Part shown: piece by piece, positions 4,260-15,964 of the stretch
Layout: every line of letters begins with the position of its first letter
Position numbering within the stretch: the stretch's first letter is position 1
Virus genome (UHGV): UHGV-2015158
Source of the DNA: a virus
Reading direction: 5' to 3' (one strand)
Length of the DNA stretch: 19,940 nucleotides
Notes under the pieces: generated by a model
What the model was told of the DNA's origin: nothing
What the model saw: the letters and a program-made list of their open reading frames with translations, nothing else
Databases searched by the model: none
Translations under genes and position numbers: made by a program

Positions 4260-4841
4260 ATGAACAACTCATGGTGGCAGGAACTAATGCATTTTTTCCT
4301 GCAAGGAATGACACTTAAACAGTTGATTCATATGCTAATCATCCTGATCATATTGATTATTGTTATGCCTGTAAGCGTAAAAGAATGGATAAACCTGCAT
4401 AATCCAGAAATCCTTCCTCATTACTGGATGTATTACATCCTGTTGTTTTGCGTTAGCTATGTGCTTAACGGCGTTGTTAATTCCGCTTATCACGCTGTGA
4501 CTGTAAGAATTGAGATATTCGCTGCTCAGAAGCGCAAATCTAAAGAAGAGAAATACGTGCAAGATTTGTTTGATTCGTTAACTCTTGGAGAAAGAGCGTA
4601 TTTGGCATTCGCTGTAGCCGCTAATAACCAGCTAAAGACAGAAAAGGGAAGCCCTGAAGCAATCTCATTGCTCGAAAAAGGGCTTCTTATTCGGGTACCT
4701 TCTGCTACTGGATATCCTGAAATCGACCGTTTTGTTATCCCGGAACGCTATAGAAATGAGTGCTACATTAGGTTTGCTGGGAAGAAAGACAGTCTTATGG
4801 ATGAACTTATCGCTCAGGATAAGCATGGCAAAAACAAGTAA
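4260..4841 (+). CDS. sieB: superinfection exclusion protein B
   Basis: 193 aa, begins MNNSWWQELMHFFLQGMTLKQLIHMLIILIILIIVMPVSVKEW with hydrophobic N-terminus; matches remembered lambda SieB; convergent with N. Confidence 0.85.
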   Translation: MNNSWWQELMHFFLQGMTLKQLIHMLIILIILIIVMPVSVKEWINLHNPEILPHYWMYYILLFCVSYVLNGVVNSAYHAVTVRIEIFAAQKRKSKEEKYVQDLFDSLTLGERAYLAFAVAANNQLKTEKGSPEAISLLEKGLLIRVPSATGYPEIDRFVIPERYRNECYIRFAGKKDSLMDELIAQDKHGKNK

Positions 4842-4857
4842 TTAGCAAATGAATTTA

Positions 4858-5169
4858 TCATCTCGCCGTCAGTTGTTTTGATTTCCGGTAGCCTGCCGCG
4901 TAAATAGCTACGTTTGGCAGGCAAACACTTCCACTGCATTCATCTACTTTCTTGCAGCGAAGGCTTCCGAGTGATATTGCTTTTTCAGAAAGGCTTAACC
5001 GCTTTCTCGGGTCTTCCTGAACAGGTTCCTCACTGTCTGTGCCGAAGATCGAATCGATGATGTTGCAGATGGAATCACGCTCGATGGCCAGCTTTCTGCG
5101 CCGCTCATGACGGCGAGTTTTGGCATTTCCTGCAAATGTTGATTTTCCGTACACGATTACCGTCATGAT
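4858..5169 (-). CDS. N: N-type antiterminator (P22 gene 24-like)
   Basis: 103 aa from the internal Met of ORF 4858..5250 (MTVIVYGKSTFAGNAKTRRHERRRKLAIERD); arginine-rich RNA-binding motif as in P22 N, unlike lambda N. Confidence 0.8.
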   Translation of the reverse strand: MMTVIVYGKSTFAGNAKTRRHERRRKLAIERDSICNIIDSIFGTDSEEPVQEDPRKRLSLSEKAISLGSLRCKKVDECSGSVCLPNVAIYAAGYRKSKQLTAR

Positions 5170-5319: not shown

Positions 5320-5572
5320 TGCCAATCTGTTCCGTTTGGCTGCCAGCGTCCTGCTGATGGCGATTATAATGAACCAATAGTTCGATATTATCAAGAACTA
5401 TAAGTACGAATTGTTTGTGGTTCATTAACTTAATGAGATATGTTTTTGATATGTAAAGGAATTTATTTTTGTAAAGATTGAAGATTGGTCAGTAGGAGAG
5501 AAAGAATTGTTTGCTGGCGTGTTAGTTCGTGGGTTAGCACATGTGCGGATGTTAAATAAGGTAGACGATCGT

Positions 5573-5602
5573 GAGGAAAAGAAAAACCGGCGCTGAGGCC
5601 GG
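5573..5602 (-). terminator. intrinsic terminator after the immunity-region transcript
   Basis: Hairpin CCGGC-gctgag-GCCGG (5587-5602) followed on the minus strand by a U-tract (A-run 5573-5586 on plus), within 35 nt of the 5609..6508 stop; positionally like lambda t-imm. Confidence 0.5.
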
Positions 5603-5608
5603 GTATAA

Positions 5609-6508
5609 TTATTTGATTATTTCTTTTATAAAGACTTCTTTCGGTTGGTATTTTTTATCTGATGATTTGAGCTGGTACGTTATTGTTATATCAGCACGTA
5701 CAGAAAATTTACCTGCAAAATCTGATGGGTTTACGTTGGGGCCAAGAACCATATTTACTCTTCGATCTATTAATCCAGGGATAACAGCAGCCCAACCTTT
5801 CTCTGGATTGTCGAGGTCTAATGCACGGATTTCAACATCAACATCAAAATGATCCTGAGTATATGACTCTGGTGTGAAGACAACTTCAGTTGGGGCTTTT
5901 TTAATGGTTTCAGCGGGAATGGTCACTGTACCACCCCCTGTACCTATGACCATCGTAGATCCTTCGTCTGCCCTAGCTGGGGCAAGCGTCTTAATGGAAC
6001 TTTTGGCAAGAGTCTTCTTATTGGTTACCGTGCTTTCTATGATTGCTTGAAGACGGTCAGGTGAAATATTAGCCTCACCGGCACCAATATTGATGATTGT
6101 ATTGTTATTTGCTTCAAAGTGGGAGGTGTTGCTTGGAGCCATAGCCTTAGTTGCTAGAACTAAGCCATATCCAACCAGACCAATAACAACAGCACCAACG
6201 AGAGCGTTTCTCATTTTCCCATTTCCGATCTTTGCATGAGCGCCAGCAAGAAACTTGTCCATTTCTTCTTGGCTACCAAAGAGGAGTTTAATAACAATAT
6301 CTTCATAAAGGCTTCCTGCTTCTAATCGCGCAACATGCACCGATATATCAAGGATATTAGCCCCTGTCAGTTCCTGCAAAACACCTTCTGATTGTTTTGC
6401 GATGGCCTCCCACCCTTGAAGGGAGGTAATCACATCTTTGATGCTTACAGGTTCTTTAGTTGAATAATATATGTTTTCGGTAAAGGTTAAAGATAATTCT
6501 TGGGACAT
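5609..6508 (-). CDS. unrecognised 299-aa single-pass membrane protein in the rexAB slot
   Basis: Uninterrupted ORF with GAGGG RBS 5 nt before the ATG; one hydrophobic segment (residues about 101-124, NALVGAVVIGLVGYGLVLATKAMA, encoded about 6137-6208) preceded by K/R; AT-rich versus flanks; sits between cI and PL/N. No family recognised. Confidence 0.65.
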   Translation of the reverse strand: MSQELSLTFTENIYYSTKEPVSIKDVITSLQGWEAIAKQSEGVLQELTGANILDISVHVARLEAGSLYEDIVIKLLFGSQEEMDKFLAGAHAKIGNGKMRNALVGAVVIGLVGYGLVLATKAMAPSNTSHFEANNNTIINIGAGEANISPDRLQAIIESTVTNKKTLAKSSIKTLAPARADEGSTMVIGTGGGTVTIPAETIKKAPTEVVFTPESYTQDHFDVDVEIRALDLDNPEKGWAAVIPGLIDRRVNMVLGPNVNPSDFAGKFSVRADITITYQLKSSDKKYQPKEVFIKEIIK

Positions 6509-6637
6509 CCGAGCCCTCGCTGTTTCTTTCGATTTGCTGTGTTAAGCTAATATTTTAATATCCATGTTTCTGTTTGCTTGCAGTGTGTTTCTCACCACCA
6601 TCCAAACGTACTGGTTACTAGCTATGTGATGATGAAG

Positions 6638-7345
6638 TCATGAACTTTTCAGCCATTCCCTGGCCTCGATGTCATCTAGGTGGCGAGATTGCTTCAGAAT
6701 ACCAGCTACATACTCCACCTTTGCTACTTGATGATAAGGCAACGTTATTGGCCTGTGGTCTTGGTTGATGCTTGTAAATTGGTATTCTCCGTCTCTGTCA
6801 TAGCCAAGAACCTTGATCATGTTGTGCCCTTCAATGGTTCTGACAAACACCTCATCACCTGGGAATACTTTGGTGTTAGGCTCAATGAGTACATATTCTC
6901 CTGATTTTATTCTGGGCCACATGCTGTCTCCTTTTACACGAAGACCAAAGGCATCTGGATCATCGCTATAAATCTTGAGCCACCCATCGCGCTCTTCGGT
7001 CATCTCGATGGCACCATCAACACCAAGAATTGCCTCACCAACCACGCGCACTAACCCTTTTTTTAATTTGCCAACAATTGAAAAAGTATCTTCATCATTC
7101 GCTCCATTTAACGAAGTGCCGTGCTGAAGCCAAACAACATCAACGTTTAGAAATTTCGCAAGCGCATTCATTTTTTCCTGGCGTGGTAAAGACTCAGCAT
7201 TAAACCATTTGCTAACGCCTTTGGACGAAAGAGAAAGGGCACGGGCTATGGCCATTCCCCTACCATGTTCATCAAGACCAGCTTCTTTACAGGCTTGCGC
7301 TAGCCGCTGGGCGAATTCTTTGCGCACTTTTTCATTCTGAACCAT
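6638..7345 (-). CDS. cI: CI-type prophage repressor (HTH + S24 LexA-like peptidase domain)
   Basis: 235 aa; N-terminal HTH region and C-terminal autocleavage motif (VKGDSMWPRIKSGEYVLIEP); divergent from leftward-operon genes; not the lambda, 434 or P22 repressor sequence. Confidence 0.9.
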   Translation of the reverse strand: MVQNEKVRKEFAQRLAQACKEAGLDEHGRGMAIARALSLSSKGVSKWFNAESLPRQEKMNALAKFLNVDVVWLQHGTSLNGANDEDTFSIVGKLKKGLVRVVGEAILGVDGAIEMTEERDGWLKIYSDDPDAFGLRVKGDSMWPRIKSGEYVLIEPNTKVFPGDEVFVRTIEGHNMIKVLGYDRDGEYQFTSINQDHRPITLPYHQVAKVEYVAGILKQSRHLDDIEAREWLKSS

Positions 7346-12235: not shown

Positions 12236-12320
12236 AGTCAGAGATAACAATCAACTAATACTGTTTTGCTGATTTTTGCTTGTAATTGGCGTTCTGGTCT
12301 GATTTTTGTGGAGTAAGTTG

Positions 12321-12698
12321 ATGCGTGATATTCAGATGGTTCTTGAGCGTTGGGGAGCGTGGGCGGCTAATAATCATGAAGATGTGACCTGGTCGTCCAT
12401 TGCCGCCGGTTTTAAGGGATTAATTCCTTCAAAAGTAAAATCTCGCCCGCAATGTTGTGACGATGACGCGATGATCATTTGCGGGTGCATGGCCCGTCTG
12501 AAAAATAACAACAGCGATTTGCATGATTTGTTAGTGGACTATTATGTCGGCGGCATGACTTTTATGGCGCTTGCGCGTAAGCATGGTAGATCTGATTGTT
12601 GGATTGGCAGGATGCTCCAAAAAGCTGAGGGCGTAGTGGAGGGCATGCTGATGGTGTTGGATCTCAGATTGGAGATGGATGCTGATTGTTTGAGATAA
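12321..12698 (+). CDS. Q: late-gene antiterminator Q (DLP12 QuuD / phage 82 type)
   Basis: 125 aa from ATG 12321 ([70 protein letters not shown]), GGAG RBS upstream; resembles QuuD rather than lambda Q. Confidence 0.85.
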
Positions 12699-12854: not shown

Positions 12855-13379
12855 TTATTGTTTGACCCATAATAGTTCATTGACATTGAATCCCAATTTT
12901 TGAGCAGTACGCACATAGTCTGCTTTTACATTATCTGGAATAGTTGGAGTCCGTGCCAGAATCCATAGGTATTCTCTGTTCGGACCACTGACAAGAGCAT
13001 ACTTATACTCATCATCCAGTTTGATTACATTATAGCCACCATAGAAGGGGCCAAAAAACGAAACCTTCAACGCTGCAGTTGTATTATCTCCTGTAAAGTA
13101 TGCTTTACCTTCGCTCTCGCTCCATTTGTTTTTCGTTGGGTCATATCCACGATTAAGTACACTAATCCCTCCGTCGTTCCGTTTCCCATAAGTGGCGCTG
13201 ACCTGTTCCAGACCACGTTCAAATCGGTTCTCAAGCCGAGCTATTTCATACCATTTTCCGAGGTAGCGGTTGGTGTCAAAATTTGTAATCGGCTGCACAC
13301 CTTTAGGTGGTGTCGGGGCCTTACATGCTATCAGAGTGAAAGAGAGTGCAATGCCAGTCAACACAGGCCATAACTTCAT
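12855..13379 (-). CDS. bacterial lipocalin (Blc-like) outer-membrane lipoprotein
   Basis: 174 aa; lipoprotein signal with lipobox LIAC (MKLWPVLTGIALSFTLIAC); lipocalin-type motifs (GKWYEIARLEN ... YALVSGPNREYLWILART); opposite orientation to late genes. Confidence 0.8.
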   Translation of the reverse strand: MKLWPVLTGIALSFTLIACKAPTPPKGVQPITNFDTNRYLGKWYEIARLENRFERGLEQVSATYGKRNDGGISVLNRGYDPTKNKWSESEGKAYFTGDNTTAALKVSFFGPFYGGYNVIKLDDEYKYALVSGPNREYLWILARTPTIPDNVKADYVRTAQKLGFNVNELLWVKQ

Positions 13380-13571
13380 AATATATCCTGTACTTTTGAT
13401 AGTTGAGAGTAAGTATTAAAGATAGATGATTACTACCGATCACCTAAAGAACTTTCCTACTATATTAGGAATAGTCCATAACAAAAAAATTGTCAGTGAT
13501 GACGGCAGAAAGGCAGTTTAGGTCGTGTACTACACTGTTAACCTGTTAATGAATTAGTCAAGGGGTAGGCA

Positions 13572-14531
13572 ATGATAAAAAAACCTGTCGTTGGGATCAG
13601 TGGTTGTTTGGCCGGTTCTTCTGTCCGTTTTGATGGTGGTCACAAAAGAGCTAGCTTTTTAATGGACAAATTACTGGAATGGGTAACATTCAAACCAGTA
13701 TGTCCGGAAATGGCTATAGGGCTTCCAGTTCCGCGTCCTGCTCTACGTCTTGTTCGCTCGGCGCAAGGAAATATACGGATGTGTTTCAGCCACGACCAGA
13801 ATGAGGATGTTACAGAGAAAATGACAGAGTTTAGTCGTTCTTATCTTGACAAATTAAAGGATGTATCGGGATTTGTGGTTTGTGCAAAATCTCCTAGCTG
13901 TGGTATGGAACGCGTGCGTGTATATGATGAAAATGGTAATCGTGGTCGTAAAGATGGAGTGGGACTATTTACGAGCACGTTGATGGAAAGGTTTTCCTGG
14001 CTACCGGTTGAAGAGGATGGGCGACTACATGATCCAGTGCTTCGTGAAAACTTTGTTGAAAGAGTATTTGCTTTACATGAGCTCAATCATCTTTATAAAG
14101 CGAAATTATCAAGAAGGGAATTATTAGCTTTTCATAGCCGTTATAAGCTTCAGTTGTTGGCGCATAGCCAGGCCGGTTATAAAGAGATGGGGCCATTTGT
14201 GGCTGCAATACATGAGTGGGCAGACCTTGAATCATACTTTGAGGTGTATCGTGAGAAGCTGATGGCGATTCTCAGAAAACCTGCATCACGTAAAAATCAC
14301 ACGAATGTGCTGATGCATATACAGGGATATTTTAGTAACTGCTTAAATACACGTCAGCGTAAAGAGTTGAGCGATGTTATACTTAACTATCGAGCTGGCA
14401 CGCTACCTCTTCTTGCGCCATTAACTTTGCTGAAGCATTACTTGGCAGAGTATCCTGATGATTATTTGCTTATACAGAATTACTTCCACCCCTATCCTGA
14501 TGAACTGGCTCTAAGACTCTTGGTGAACTAG
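13572..14531 (+). CDS. DUF523/DUF1722 (YbgA-like) protein
   Basis: 319 aa; N-terminal Cys-containing motif (GISGCLAGSSVRFDGGHK ... CPEM ... SPSCG) typical of DUF523/TudS-like proteins, with a YbgA-like C-terminal half; family-level call from memory. Confidence 0.7.
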   Translation: MIKKPVVGISGCLAGSSVRFDGGHKRASFLMDKLLEWVTFKPVCPEMAIGLPVPRPALRLVRSAQGNIRMCFSHDQNEDVTEKMTEFSRSYLDKLKDVSGFVVCAKSPSCGMERVRVYDENGNRGRKDGVGLFTSTLMERFSWLPVEEDGRLHDPVLRENFVERVFALHELNHLYKAKLSRRELLAFHSRYKLQLLAHSQAGYKEMGPFVAAIHEWADLESYFEVYREKLMAILRKPASRKNHTNVLMHIQGYFSNCLNTRQRKELSDVILNYRAGTLPLLAPLTLLKHYLAEYPDDYLLIQNYFHPYPDELALRLLVN

Positions 14532-14849
14532 GCGTTTGGAATGCACCAACAAGATGATTTTCTCCTTAGAGAATGTTTACAATCGTAAAAACTTCACTAT
14601 GATATCTATAGTTGTACAGTTTGTAAAAAAATTCGGTTCATGCTTAAGGTAATGTTAATATGTTAATTAATGATTAATAATCAAGCAAGCCAAAAATAGT
14701 TCTGTTTAATCTAGTATTACATAAATATTTTAAAGAAAATATCAAAGTTCATGATGATATAATGAGATTTTTCTCATTGAAAATATGGCAATTTTAATAT
14801 TTCCACCTATACTTACTTAACTCAAATCTAATTATGTCAGGTGGATGGT

Positions 14850-15581
14850 ATGCCATGCATATGTTCTATCATTTTGGTTTTGAACTCGTTTGATATCCGG
14901 CTTGGTAAAGAAAAAATCTCTCTAAAAAAAGGAAGTGTTGTTGCTATAGAATACAATTTAAAAGTTTTCTTTTCTTCAAATAAAGATAATATAATGATCG
15001 TGGATATTGAAGAGAAAACAGTTAATGACTTCTTTAAAAACAATACACTCTCACCTTTTTCTGTAAGAAGATTTTATTCAGCATACTTGATAGTAAACTG
15101 TACAGACTATTCATTGTTAAAGAACTTGATAGGTTGCTTGAATTGTGATGGTGAAACTACGGCTGTAGTTAAAAATTCAATATTATTTGCATGTCTTGCT
15201 ATTTTATCCTCGGAAAAAATGTTTCAGAGTTTTTTGTTTGGGTGTCTTAATAGTTTAGGAAGCAAAGTTAAGGCTATTATTCACTCGGACATATCTGCAG
15301 CATGGAGACTTTGTGATATTTCTTCAAGACTATGTCTGAGTGAAAGTTTGTTAAAAAGAAAACTAAAACACGAAGGCTTATCATTTAGCAAATTAATTCT
15401 TGAAGAACGAATGGTGATGGCTGAAAGGTTATTAAGCTACAATTTCTATCCTGTTGGGAAAGTTGCTAAAATATGTGGTTATGAAAGCGCGTCATATTTT
15501 ATAAGTGTTTTCAGAAGATATTTTGGTGTTCCCCCCCATGAATATTCATCAAGATTTTTTTTAGAAAAAGGCAAGATGTAA
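14850..15581 (+). CDS. AraC-family transcriptional regulator (AppY/EnvY-like)
   Basis: 243 aa from ATG 14850 (AGGTGG RBS); C-terminal AraC-type HTH (KVAKICGYESASYFISVFRRYFGVPPHEY); N-terminus resembles AppY; gene and flanks very AT-rich. Confidence 0.8.
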   Translation: MPCICSIILVLNSFDIRLGKEKISLKKGSVVAIEYNLKVFFSSNKDNIMIVDIEEKTVNDFFKNNTLSPFSVRRFYSAYLIVNCTDYSLLKNLIGCLNCDGETTAVVKNSILFACLAILSSEKMFQSFLFGCLNSLGSKVKAIIHSDISAAWRLCDISSRLCLSESLLKRKLKHEGLSFSKLILEERMVMAERLLSYNFYPVGKVAKICGYESASYFISVFRRYFGVPPHEYSSRFFLEKGKM

Positions 15582-15748: not shown

Positions 15749-15964
15749 ATGAAATCCATGGACAAGTTAACAACGGGCATTGCCTACGGCACCTCTGCAG
15801 GCAGTGCTGGCTACTGGTTTTTACAGTGGCTTGATCAGGTCAGTCCGTCACAGTGGGCGGCGATTGGAGTGCTTGGAAGCCTTGTGTTGGGTTTTCTCAC
15901 TTATCTGACAAACCTTTATTTCAAGATTAAAGAAGATAAGCGTAAGGCTGCGAGAGGTGAATAA
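15749..15964 (+). CDS. S: class II holin (phage 21 S-type pinholin) with dual start
   Basis: 71 aa; [71 protein letters not shown]; matches S21/EssD; Met1 and Met4 give the antiholin/holin dual-start motif; GGAGG RBS. Confidence 0.9.

Follow-up and report, generated by a model that had tools for sequence, protein, structure and literature searches.

A single-gene cassette behind the repressor of a lambda-like prophage carries a member of a widespread protein family with candidate anti-phage function

The gene behind cI and its expression signals

The virus genome UHGV-2015158, analysed here as a stretch of 19,940 nucleotides (nt; hereafter the window), contains a lambda-like immunity region in which a single open reading frame (ORF) lies between the repressor gene cI and the antiterminator gene N. 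As a preliminary description made from the sequence alone had reported, this is a clean minus-strand ORF of 900 nt (5609..6508), encoding 299 amino acids (aa) from an ATG start codon that is preceded, 5 nt ahead, by a GAGGG ribosome-binding site (6514..6518, minus strand). The product is the protein recorded as RefSeq WP_000076840.1 and as gp50 in phage 1H12. Upstream lies cI (6638..7345, minus strand), a 933W-type allele with HTH_3 and Peptidase_S24 domains, and N lies downstream at 4858-5166. The coordinates agree with the description's placement of the ORF directly downstream of cI in the same orientation, with a 129-bp gap separating its start at 6508 from the stop of cI at 6638.

That spacer (6509..6637, minus strand) had been suggested as a possible site for a promoter private to the ORF, a suggestion that scanning did not support: neither a terminator-like site nor a consensus promoter was found in it, and its RNA does not fold more favourably than shuffled controls (z = 0.49). 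At the other end of the gene, the predicted intrinsic terminator is indeed found directly downstream of the ORF (5577..5602, minus strand), with a 5-bp GC stem, a 6-nt loop and a T-run: the hairpin CCGGC-loop-GCCGG at 5602-5587 is followed by TTTTTCTTTT and has a free energy of -9.1 kcal/mol. Since no terminator or good promoter separates the ORF from cI, the ORF would be read through from the cI transcript, most likely in lysogens from the maintenance promoter (PRM), with transcription expected to end at the terminator. As regards this part of lambdoid prophages, a small RNA, svsR, encoded at the cI 3' end of the lambdoid prophage NC-SV is reported to limit phage infection (PMC12803456, 2026).

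The GC content of the ORF is 0.412 overall and 0.327 at third codon positions (GC3), compared with 0.453 and 0.415 for cI and 0.489 and 0.485 for N, such that its AT-richness relative to the flanking genes, remarked upon in the preliminary description, is real but mild. The ORF is a genuine gene rather than a chance frame, because its product matches the phage protein family phrog_4506 over its full length, because hundreds of full-length homologues exist (both described below), and because the ratio of nonsynonymous to synonymous substitution rates (dN/dS) is 0.10 against the copy in Edwardsiella and 0.05 against that in Kluyvera, values that reflect purifying selection.

The cI-to-PL slot as a site of cassette exchange

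The ORF occupies the slot that holds rexAB in lambda, as originally proposed: the geometry is lambda-like, with the gene on the same strand as cI and a spacer of 129 bp where the cI-rexA gap of lambda measures 112 bp. The further claim that this slot varies among lambdoid phages was put to a direct comparison and is borne out by it. The same cI allele (~97% nt identity) occurs in many E. coli genomes that do not carry the ORF, including O157:H7 strains, and a search of E. coli genomes for the N-ORF-cI stretch provided three loci with this allele and other cargo, against which homology breakpoints were located by pairwise blastn. On the cI side, homology stops at window position 6610 in all three loci, and on the PL/N side it resumes at 5603/5604 in two of them, and at 5475 in the third (from an O121 strain). 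The exchangeable cassette thus comprises the ORF and a 101-bp leader (~5604..6609, minus strand), whereas the terminator at 5587-5602 is part of the shared slot backbone, though in Edwardsiella and Kluyvera it accompanies the ORF as well. At its far end the slot is marked by a promoter-like site upstream of N (TTGATA-17-CATTAT, 5366..5394, minus strand), found by consensus scan and a candidate for PL, with the backbone being common up to 5603. With one cI allele, sharp boundaries and different contents, the cI-to-PL slot is a cassette-exchange site, and the ORF is an accessory ('moron') cassette within it.

The cargo that replaces the ORF includes several genes with matches to defence models in PADLOC. 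In O157:H7 strain SS52 (locus L039, 2058-3968) the slot holds a DUF3024 protein, a 153-aa protein, a Ser/Thr kinase of the 933W Stk type and a 54-aa hypothetical protein; in O121 strain RM8352 (locus L037, 2167-3513) it holds a DUF3024 protein, a truncated pseudogene and a NYN-domain protein (nuclease); and in strain E89 (locus L038, 2422-2802) it holds one unannotated 126-aa protein. Among these, the Stk-like kinase matches PD-T4-6 (E = 1e-37) and mad6 (E = 7e-50), the DUF3024 protein matches the candidate model PDC-S43 (E = 7e-42), and the NYN protein weakly matches the NYN and HEC-09 models. The 153-aa protein of SS52 and the 126-aa protein of E89 match nothing in Pfam or PADLOC, and represent further candidate cargo genes of the slot.

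Occurrence of the gene and extent of its family

Among lambda-like coliphages, 11 records carry the locus with 100% identity, one of them being that of Jouyvirus 1H12. Of 5426 complete E. coli genomes, 171 (~3%) contain it, 150 of these at an identity of at least 99%. All listed records annotate the product as hypothetical. We found no paper mentioning WP_000076840 or phrog_4506, in a search outside which the prophage-defence screen of Brenes & Laub 2025 lies, and the accession WP_000076840 is absent from the DefensePredictor supplements. In E. coli EECO1006 (NZ_CP090319.1, 2224453-2227717) a copy of IS1B interrupts an otherwise identical N-ORF-cI stretch, and the annotation of this locus contains one hypothetical protein more than that of intact loci.

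Against the hidden Markov model of phrog_4506, a family without functional annotation, the protein aligns from residue 1 to 299 with profile positions 1-300 of 300 (E = 1e-170, 567 bits). A word-indexed search returned 56 homologue clusters, ranging from Enterobacterales to Accumulibacter, and an exhaustive profile search, with representatives taken at 50% identity, returned 664 at E <= 1e-3, of which 288 reached E <= 1e-30. Nearly all of the 664 are 290-330 aa in length and align end to end, and no domain fusion exists among them; consequently, the family offers no partner domain from which a function might be borrowed. Its range covers Gamma- and Betaproteobacteria together with one metagenome-assembled genome (MAG) of the Desulfuromonadales.

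Residues that are at least 95% conserved include G65, S66, L30, P177, P206, D233, G238, W239 and R250, and the family motifs are xGSLxE, NNNxIINxGAG and IRAxDLDxxxxGW. From the alignment, a conserved polar motif, ANNNTIINIGAGE, occupies residues 133-145 (6074..6112, minus strand), right after the hydrophobic helix discussed below, and the motif IRAxDLDxxxxGWA occupies residues 227-240 (5789..5830, minus strand), with W239 conserved in 100% of members and D233 and G238 in 95% each. Between groups as far apart as Enterobacterales and Nitrosomonas the C-terminal motifs remain highly conserved, and IRAxDLDxxxxGWA together with R250 is a possible ligand or partner site. The Gly/Thr-rich stretch to which the preliminary description drew attention (VIGTGGGTVTIP) is present at residues 187-198, yet the family alignment is variable and rich in indels there, and the stretch is not conserved among members.

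Searches for known relatives

The inability of the preliminary description to place the protein near RexA, RexB or SieB is upheld by profile comparison, and a wider set of profile and structure searches produced no confident homology to a well-characterised non-defence protein. No match above noise was obtained in Pfam, NCBIfam or PADLOC, either for the protein or across 45 family members; a DUF1206 match (E = 0.007) covers the hydrophobic helix only, and no Pfam domain was found in any of 45 diverse family members. None of the 5027 models of PADLOC-DB v2.0.0 matched at E <= 1, the SieB profile PF14163 gave no match, and no Rex match exists for the protein in Pfam or PHROG. Homology to RexA and RexB was additionally rejected by hhalign of a 45-sequence family profile, which gave probabilities of 0.06% and 0.18%, respectively. 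Profile searches of PDB sequences using two alignments returned nothing below E = 0.16. Foldseek comparison with BFVD yielded three matches at E <= 0.001, none of which is informative: two are phage proteins without characterisation, one of them carrying the label DUF6575, and the third is an unnamed match of low probability. An M16 (pitrilysin/insulinase) peptidase fold recurred among Foldseek matches to the PDB and was also rejected, given that these matches were very weak and that the protein does not combine a confident superposition with the HxxEH zinc motif.

Genomic habit of the homologues

Homologous loci were scanned using the family alignment A1, since the broad alignment (A4) was too divergent for this purpose. 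The ORF travels among immunity regions: the copies in Edwardsiella and Kluyvera are 95% and 90% identical in nucleotide sequence to the window ORF and lie behind different S24 repressors, the copy in Pectobacterium (74% aa identity) lies behind a small HTH repressor, and same-strand copies directly behind a repressor were also found in Pseudomonas and related genera, in Dechloromonas and in the Desulfuromonadales MAG. Overall, a same-strand HTH/S24 repressor stands just upstream of the homologue at 10 of 23 species-level genome loci and at 21 of 30 non-identical IMG/VR loci. Clustering the linked repressors gives 12 groups at 40% identity and 20 groups at 60%, and some of these repressors have no S24 domain. 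Of the indirect evidence that the protein has its role in the lysogen, this persistent linkage is the strongest.

Other copies occupy accessory positions elsewhere: in Serratia rubidaea the gene is antisense between antiterminator Q and holin, in Serratia fonticola (locus L005) it follows the primase of a satellite-like element composed of integrase, AlpA and primase (DUF927), in a Mu-like prophage of Accumulibacter it is oriented divergently to the transposase operon, and in a Methylocaldum MAG (locus L025) it stands beside a PD-Lambda-3_B/HEPN-like gene rather than a repressor. Members also occur in Nitrosomonas. In all four aligned homologues a GC-rich stretch followed by a T-run lies just past the stop codon, and may be read as a terminator. 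The upstream regions of distant homologues are unrelated and show no conservation, and there is consequently no evidence for a shared private promoter. Taken together, the habit of the family is typical moron behaviour.

Several of these loci contain neighbours worth recording. The gene just upstream of the Methylocaldum homologue (L025, 7121-7909) matches PD-Lambda-3_B (E = 3e-14), Aga_HEPN (E = 2.5e-12) and the Pfam family Hypoth_Ymh. Downstream of the S. fonticola homologue (L005, 10194-16909) are three large co-oriented ORFs of 847, 598 and at least 791 aa, separated from it by a 279-nt minus-strand ORF and a 57-aa ORF; the three large ORFs match nothing in Pfam or PADLOC, and may constitute an undescribed multi-gene system. 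A protein of equal length encoded in the satellite locus of Serratia was considered as a paralogue and rejected, as the two are unrelated. Finally, in Mu-like prophages from Accumulibacter and a metagenome (loci L002, L003 and L004), a homologue with 41% identity has on one side a 282-aa protein that lacks a Pfam match and is oriented divergently to the transposase operon, and on the other the Mu-type genes for protease/scaffold and capsid; between these, the part of the loci under study yielded no call for a terminase or portal gene, an unusual arrangement for a Mu-like phage.

Protein structure and topology

The preliminary description gave an N-terminal domain, one transmembrane helix preceded by lysine and arginine residues (K/R), and a C-terminal domain, a picture that implies a cytoplasmic N-terminal and an outside C-terminal part. 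As a hydrophobic segment the helix stands: hydropathy, the structural model and the family alignment agree on a hydrophobic helix at residues 102-123 (6140..6205, minus strand), the only hydrophobic segment of the protein peaks at residues 102-120 (Kyte-Doolittle 2.24), and three K/R precede it, with none or one following depending on the span counted. Across the family, each of 45 members checked has one hydrophobic segment at about residues 100-120, and the K+R total in the helix flanks of these members is 144 on the N-terminal side against 52 on the C-terminal side. The helix is the least conserved segment of the protein, yet its residues 103-120 stay apolar throughout, and Gly115 is kept in 87% of members.

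It is the two-sided layout that appears doubtful. A confident AlphaFold2 model built with 32 homologues folds as one compact body, with a mean predicted local distance difference test (pLDDT) of 85.7 and a predicted template modelling score (pTM) of 0.70, and is arranged as a strand-helix-strand-strand-helix unit (residues 5-94), the hydrophobic helix (102-123 in the model also), further helices (125-179) and a beta-rich part (186-297). Mean-field direct-coupling analysis of 191 family sequences (effective number of sequences, Neff, 165) recovers the beta ladders of the C-terminal part (e.g. 222-271, 225-272, 219-275 and 221-273), and also reveals an antiparallel ladder that joins the N-terminal strand to residues 184-190 (13-186, z = 9.3; 11-190, z = 6.4; 17-184, z = 5), in which the coupled pair 11-190 alternates between His-Asp and Glu-Ser. 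Residue 111, within the hydrophobic helix, couples with residue 167 (z = 5.6). The two ends of the protein are thus in contact and, since contacts between the N-terminal strand and residues 184-190 cannot span a membrane, most likely belong to one body, which would be cytoplasmic given that the protein has no signal peptide. The couplings and the model thus make it probable that no membrane separates the two globular parts; rather than crossing the bilayer as a simple span, the hydrophobic helix would then serve as an anchor, as a re-entrant element or as a latent helix able to insert into the membrane.

Function of the protein

The reading that we favour, with a probability of about one half, is that the ORF product is an anti-phage protein expressed in lysogens and acting at the inner membrane, by exclusion or abortive infection. 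The anti-phage part of this reading is drawn from the position of the gene, from its neighbours across the family, and from the cargo that replaces it. Mechanistically, the N- and C-terminal beta-rich parts would form one cytoplasmic body, interrupted by a helical insertion that comprises the strongly hydrophobic helix followed by the conserved Asn/Gly-rich motif; the body would sense or bind something, the helix would act at the inner membrane, and the lysogen would thereby be protected against other phages, by exclusion or abortive infection of a Rex-like kind.

Several observations weigh against this reading. The protein has no homology to any known defence protein, and about a third to a half of the copies of its gene are not next to a repressor. 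The strong conservation of its motifs across distant bacteria would suit a host-directed or enzymatic activity equally well, and the N-side excess of K/R around the helix fits a classical bitopic protein with its N-terminus inside and its C-terminus outside. Additionally, genes of this slot can have roles other than defence, as illustrated by 434 Hex and RecA-mediated cleavage (PMC3564112).

A more specific form of the favoured reading, which is an unlikely one in our estimation, is that the protein is a single-chain abortive-infection effector that hides its own membrane-inserting helix, releases it upon a cue, oligomerises and depolarises the inner membrane. At rest, helix 103-120 and the Asn/Gly motif at 133-145 would be packed on the cytoplasmic alpha/beta body, and the helix would be freed once the conserved Arg/Asp/Trp site in the C-terminal beta domain perceived a phage cue, such that the logic of RexA and RexB would be fused in one chain.

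A role in lysogeny or host physiology, whereby the protein would tune induction or repressor stability as 434 Hex does, or would act in envelope or stress physiology, is possible, though we place little weight on it. Genes of the PRM operon can have such roles, Hex being an example (PMC3564112), the conservation of motifs across very distant hosts fits a conserved cellular target, and tight linkage to the repressor fits a part in lysogeny itself. However, the gene is found behind at least 12 unrelated repressor families, some without S24, which argues against a repressor-specific partner, it is also found at accessory sites away from repressors, and the cargo that takes its place in the slot consists of known or candidate defence genes. 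A virulence role in an animal host is argued against by the presence of the family in Nitrosomonas, Methylocaldum, Accumulibacter and Desulfuromonadales.

It is improbable that the protein is a classical superinfection-exclusion protein of the SieA/Sie2009 kind, in which a bitopic, N-in/C-out arrangement would place a periplasmic domain of ~175 residues so as to block genome entry. The single hydrophobic segment and the positive-inside bias of the 45 members are what such a protein would show, and its gene adjoins a repressor, as Sie2009-type genes do, but the couplings of the N-terminal strand with residues 184-190, and of residue 111 with 167, are impossible across a membrane, and the AlphaFold2 model is one compact body. 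Moreover, C-terminal motifs as conserved as these would be unusual for a domain that tracks fast-evolving phage injection proteins.

Lastly, a decaying or selfish passenger ORF without function, with which the want of a functional annotation in any examined record and the E. coli strain with IS1 inside the matched stretch would be consistent, is effectively refuted by conservation, namely by the dN/dS of 0.05-0.10, the constant length and invariant residues of the 664 full-length representatives, and the near-identical or identical sequence in ~150 E. coli genomes and 11 phage records.

Among the classic sources of phage exclusion are accessory genes that share their transcript with a prophage repressor (Rex, Stk, Hex). 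That the PRM operon houses exclusion genes, and that prophages have variable hotspots, is already well known; this large, widespread protein family is not. It recurs at the same position behind many unrelated repressors, and it has no informative domain or fold match. The family is consequently a good candidate for a new anti-phage gene family. Were it to be a defence gene, it would represent a widespread single-gene system missed by PADLOC-DB v2.0.0, and a simple model for the protection of lysogens by a protein with one hydrophobic helix.

Other genes of the window

A gene of the SieB superinfection-exclusion family (4260-4841, plus strand; PF14163, E = 3e-25; phrog_1301) lies on the opposite strand of the window, flanked by N and a DUF2528 gene, and the left part of the immunity region therefore carries a second candidate exclusion function. 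Further along, the Q antiterminator gene (12306-12698) and the holin gene (15749-15964) flank three accessory genes (12855-15581), which encode a lipocalin lipoprotein (12855-13379, minus strand), a 2-thiouracil desulfurase/DUF1722 protein (13572-14531, plus strand) and an AraC-family regulator (14841-15581, plus strand), the last of these within a very AT-rich island (GC 0.26-0.33).

Comparison with known systems

RexAB of lambda is expressed in lysogens and acts at the membrane, with RexB being a four-helix membrane protein. The ORF resembles rexAB in its slot right behind cI, on the same strand, with a similar spacer and a terminator before OL/PL, and differs from this two-gene system in being the single ORF between cI and the terminator; its product has one hydrophobic segment, unlike the multi-pass RexB. 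In P22 SieA and lactococcal Sie2009, as would be the case here, a single prophage gene next to the lysogeny module encodes a protein anchored by a hydrophobic segment, although no homology was detected and coupling suggests that both globular parts of the 299-aa protein are on one side of the membrane. BstA, the abortive-infection protein of the Salmonella prophage BTP1, is likewise single-gene cargo of ~300 aa encoded downstream of a prophage repressor; unlike BstA, the 299-aa protein has no KilA-N-type domain and no PADLOC match, and BstA is not known to have a hydrophobic helix.

The genes lambda rexAB, 933W stk and 434 hex all ride the PRM transcript with cI and give exclusion (PMC3564112). 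In the case of 434, Hex lowers RecA-stimulated cleavage of the repressor, and in that of 933W, Stk is co-transcribed with cI and aborts infection by HK97 (PMC3564112). Although the 299-aa protein is unrelated in sequence to the 933W-type, PD-T4-6-like Stk, lacks a kinase domain and, unlike that kinase, matches no PADLOC model, the two genes occupy the identical slot, behind the same cI allele (~97% nt identity) and between the same exchange boundaries.

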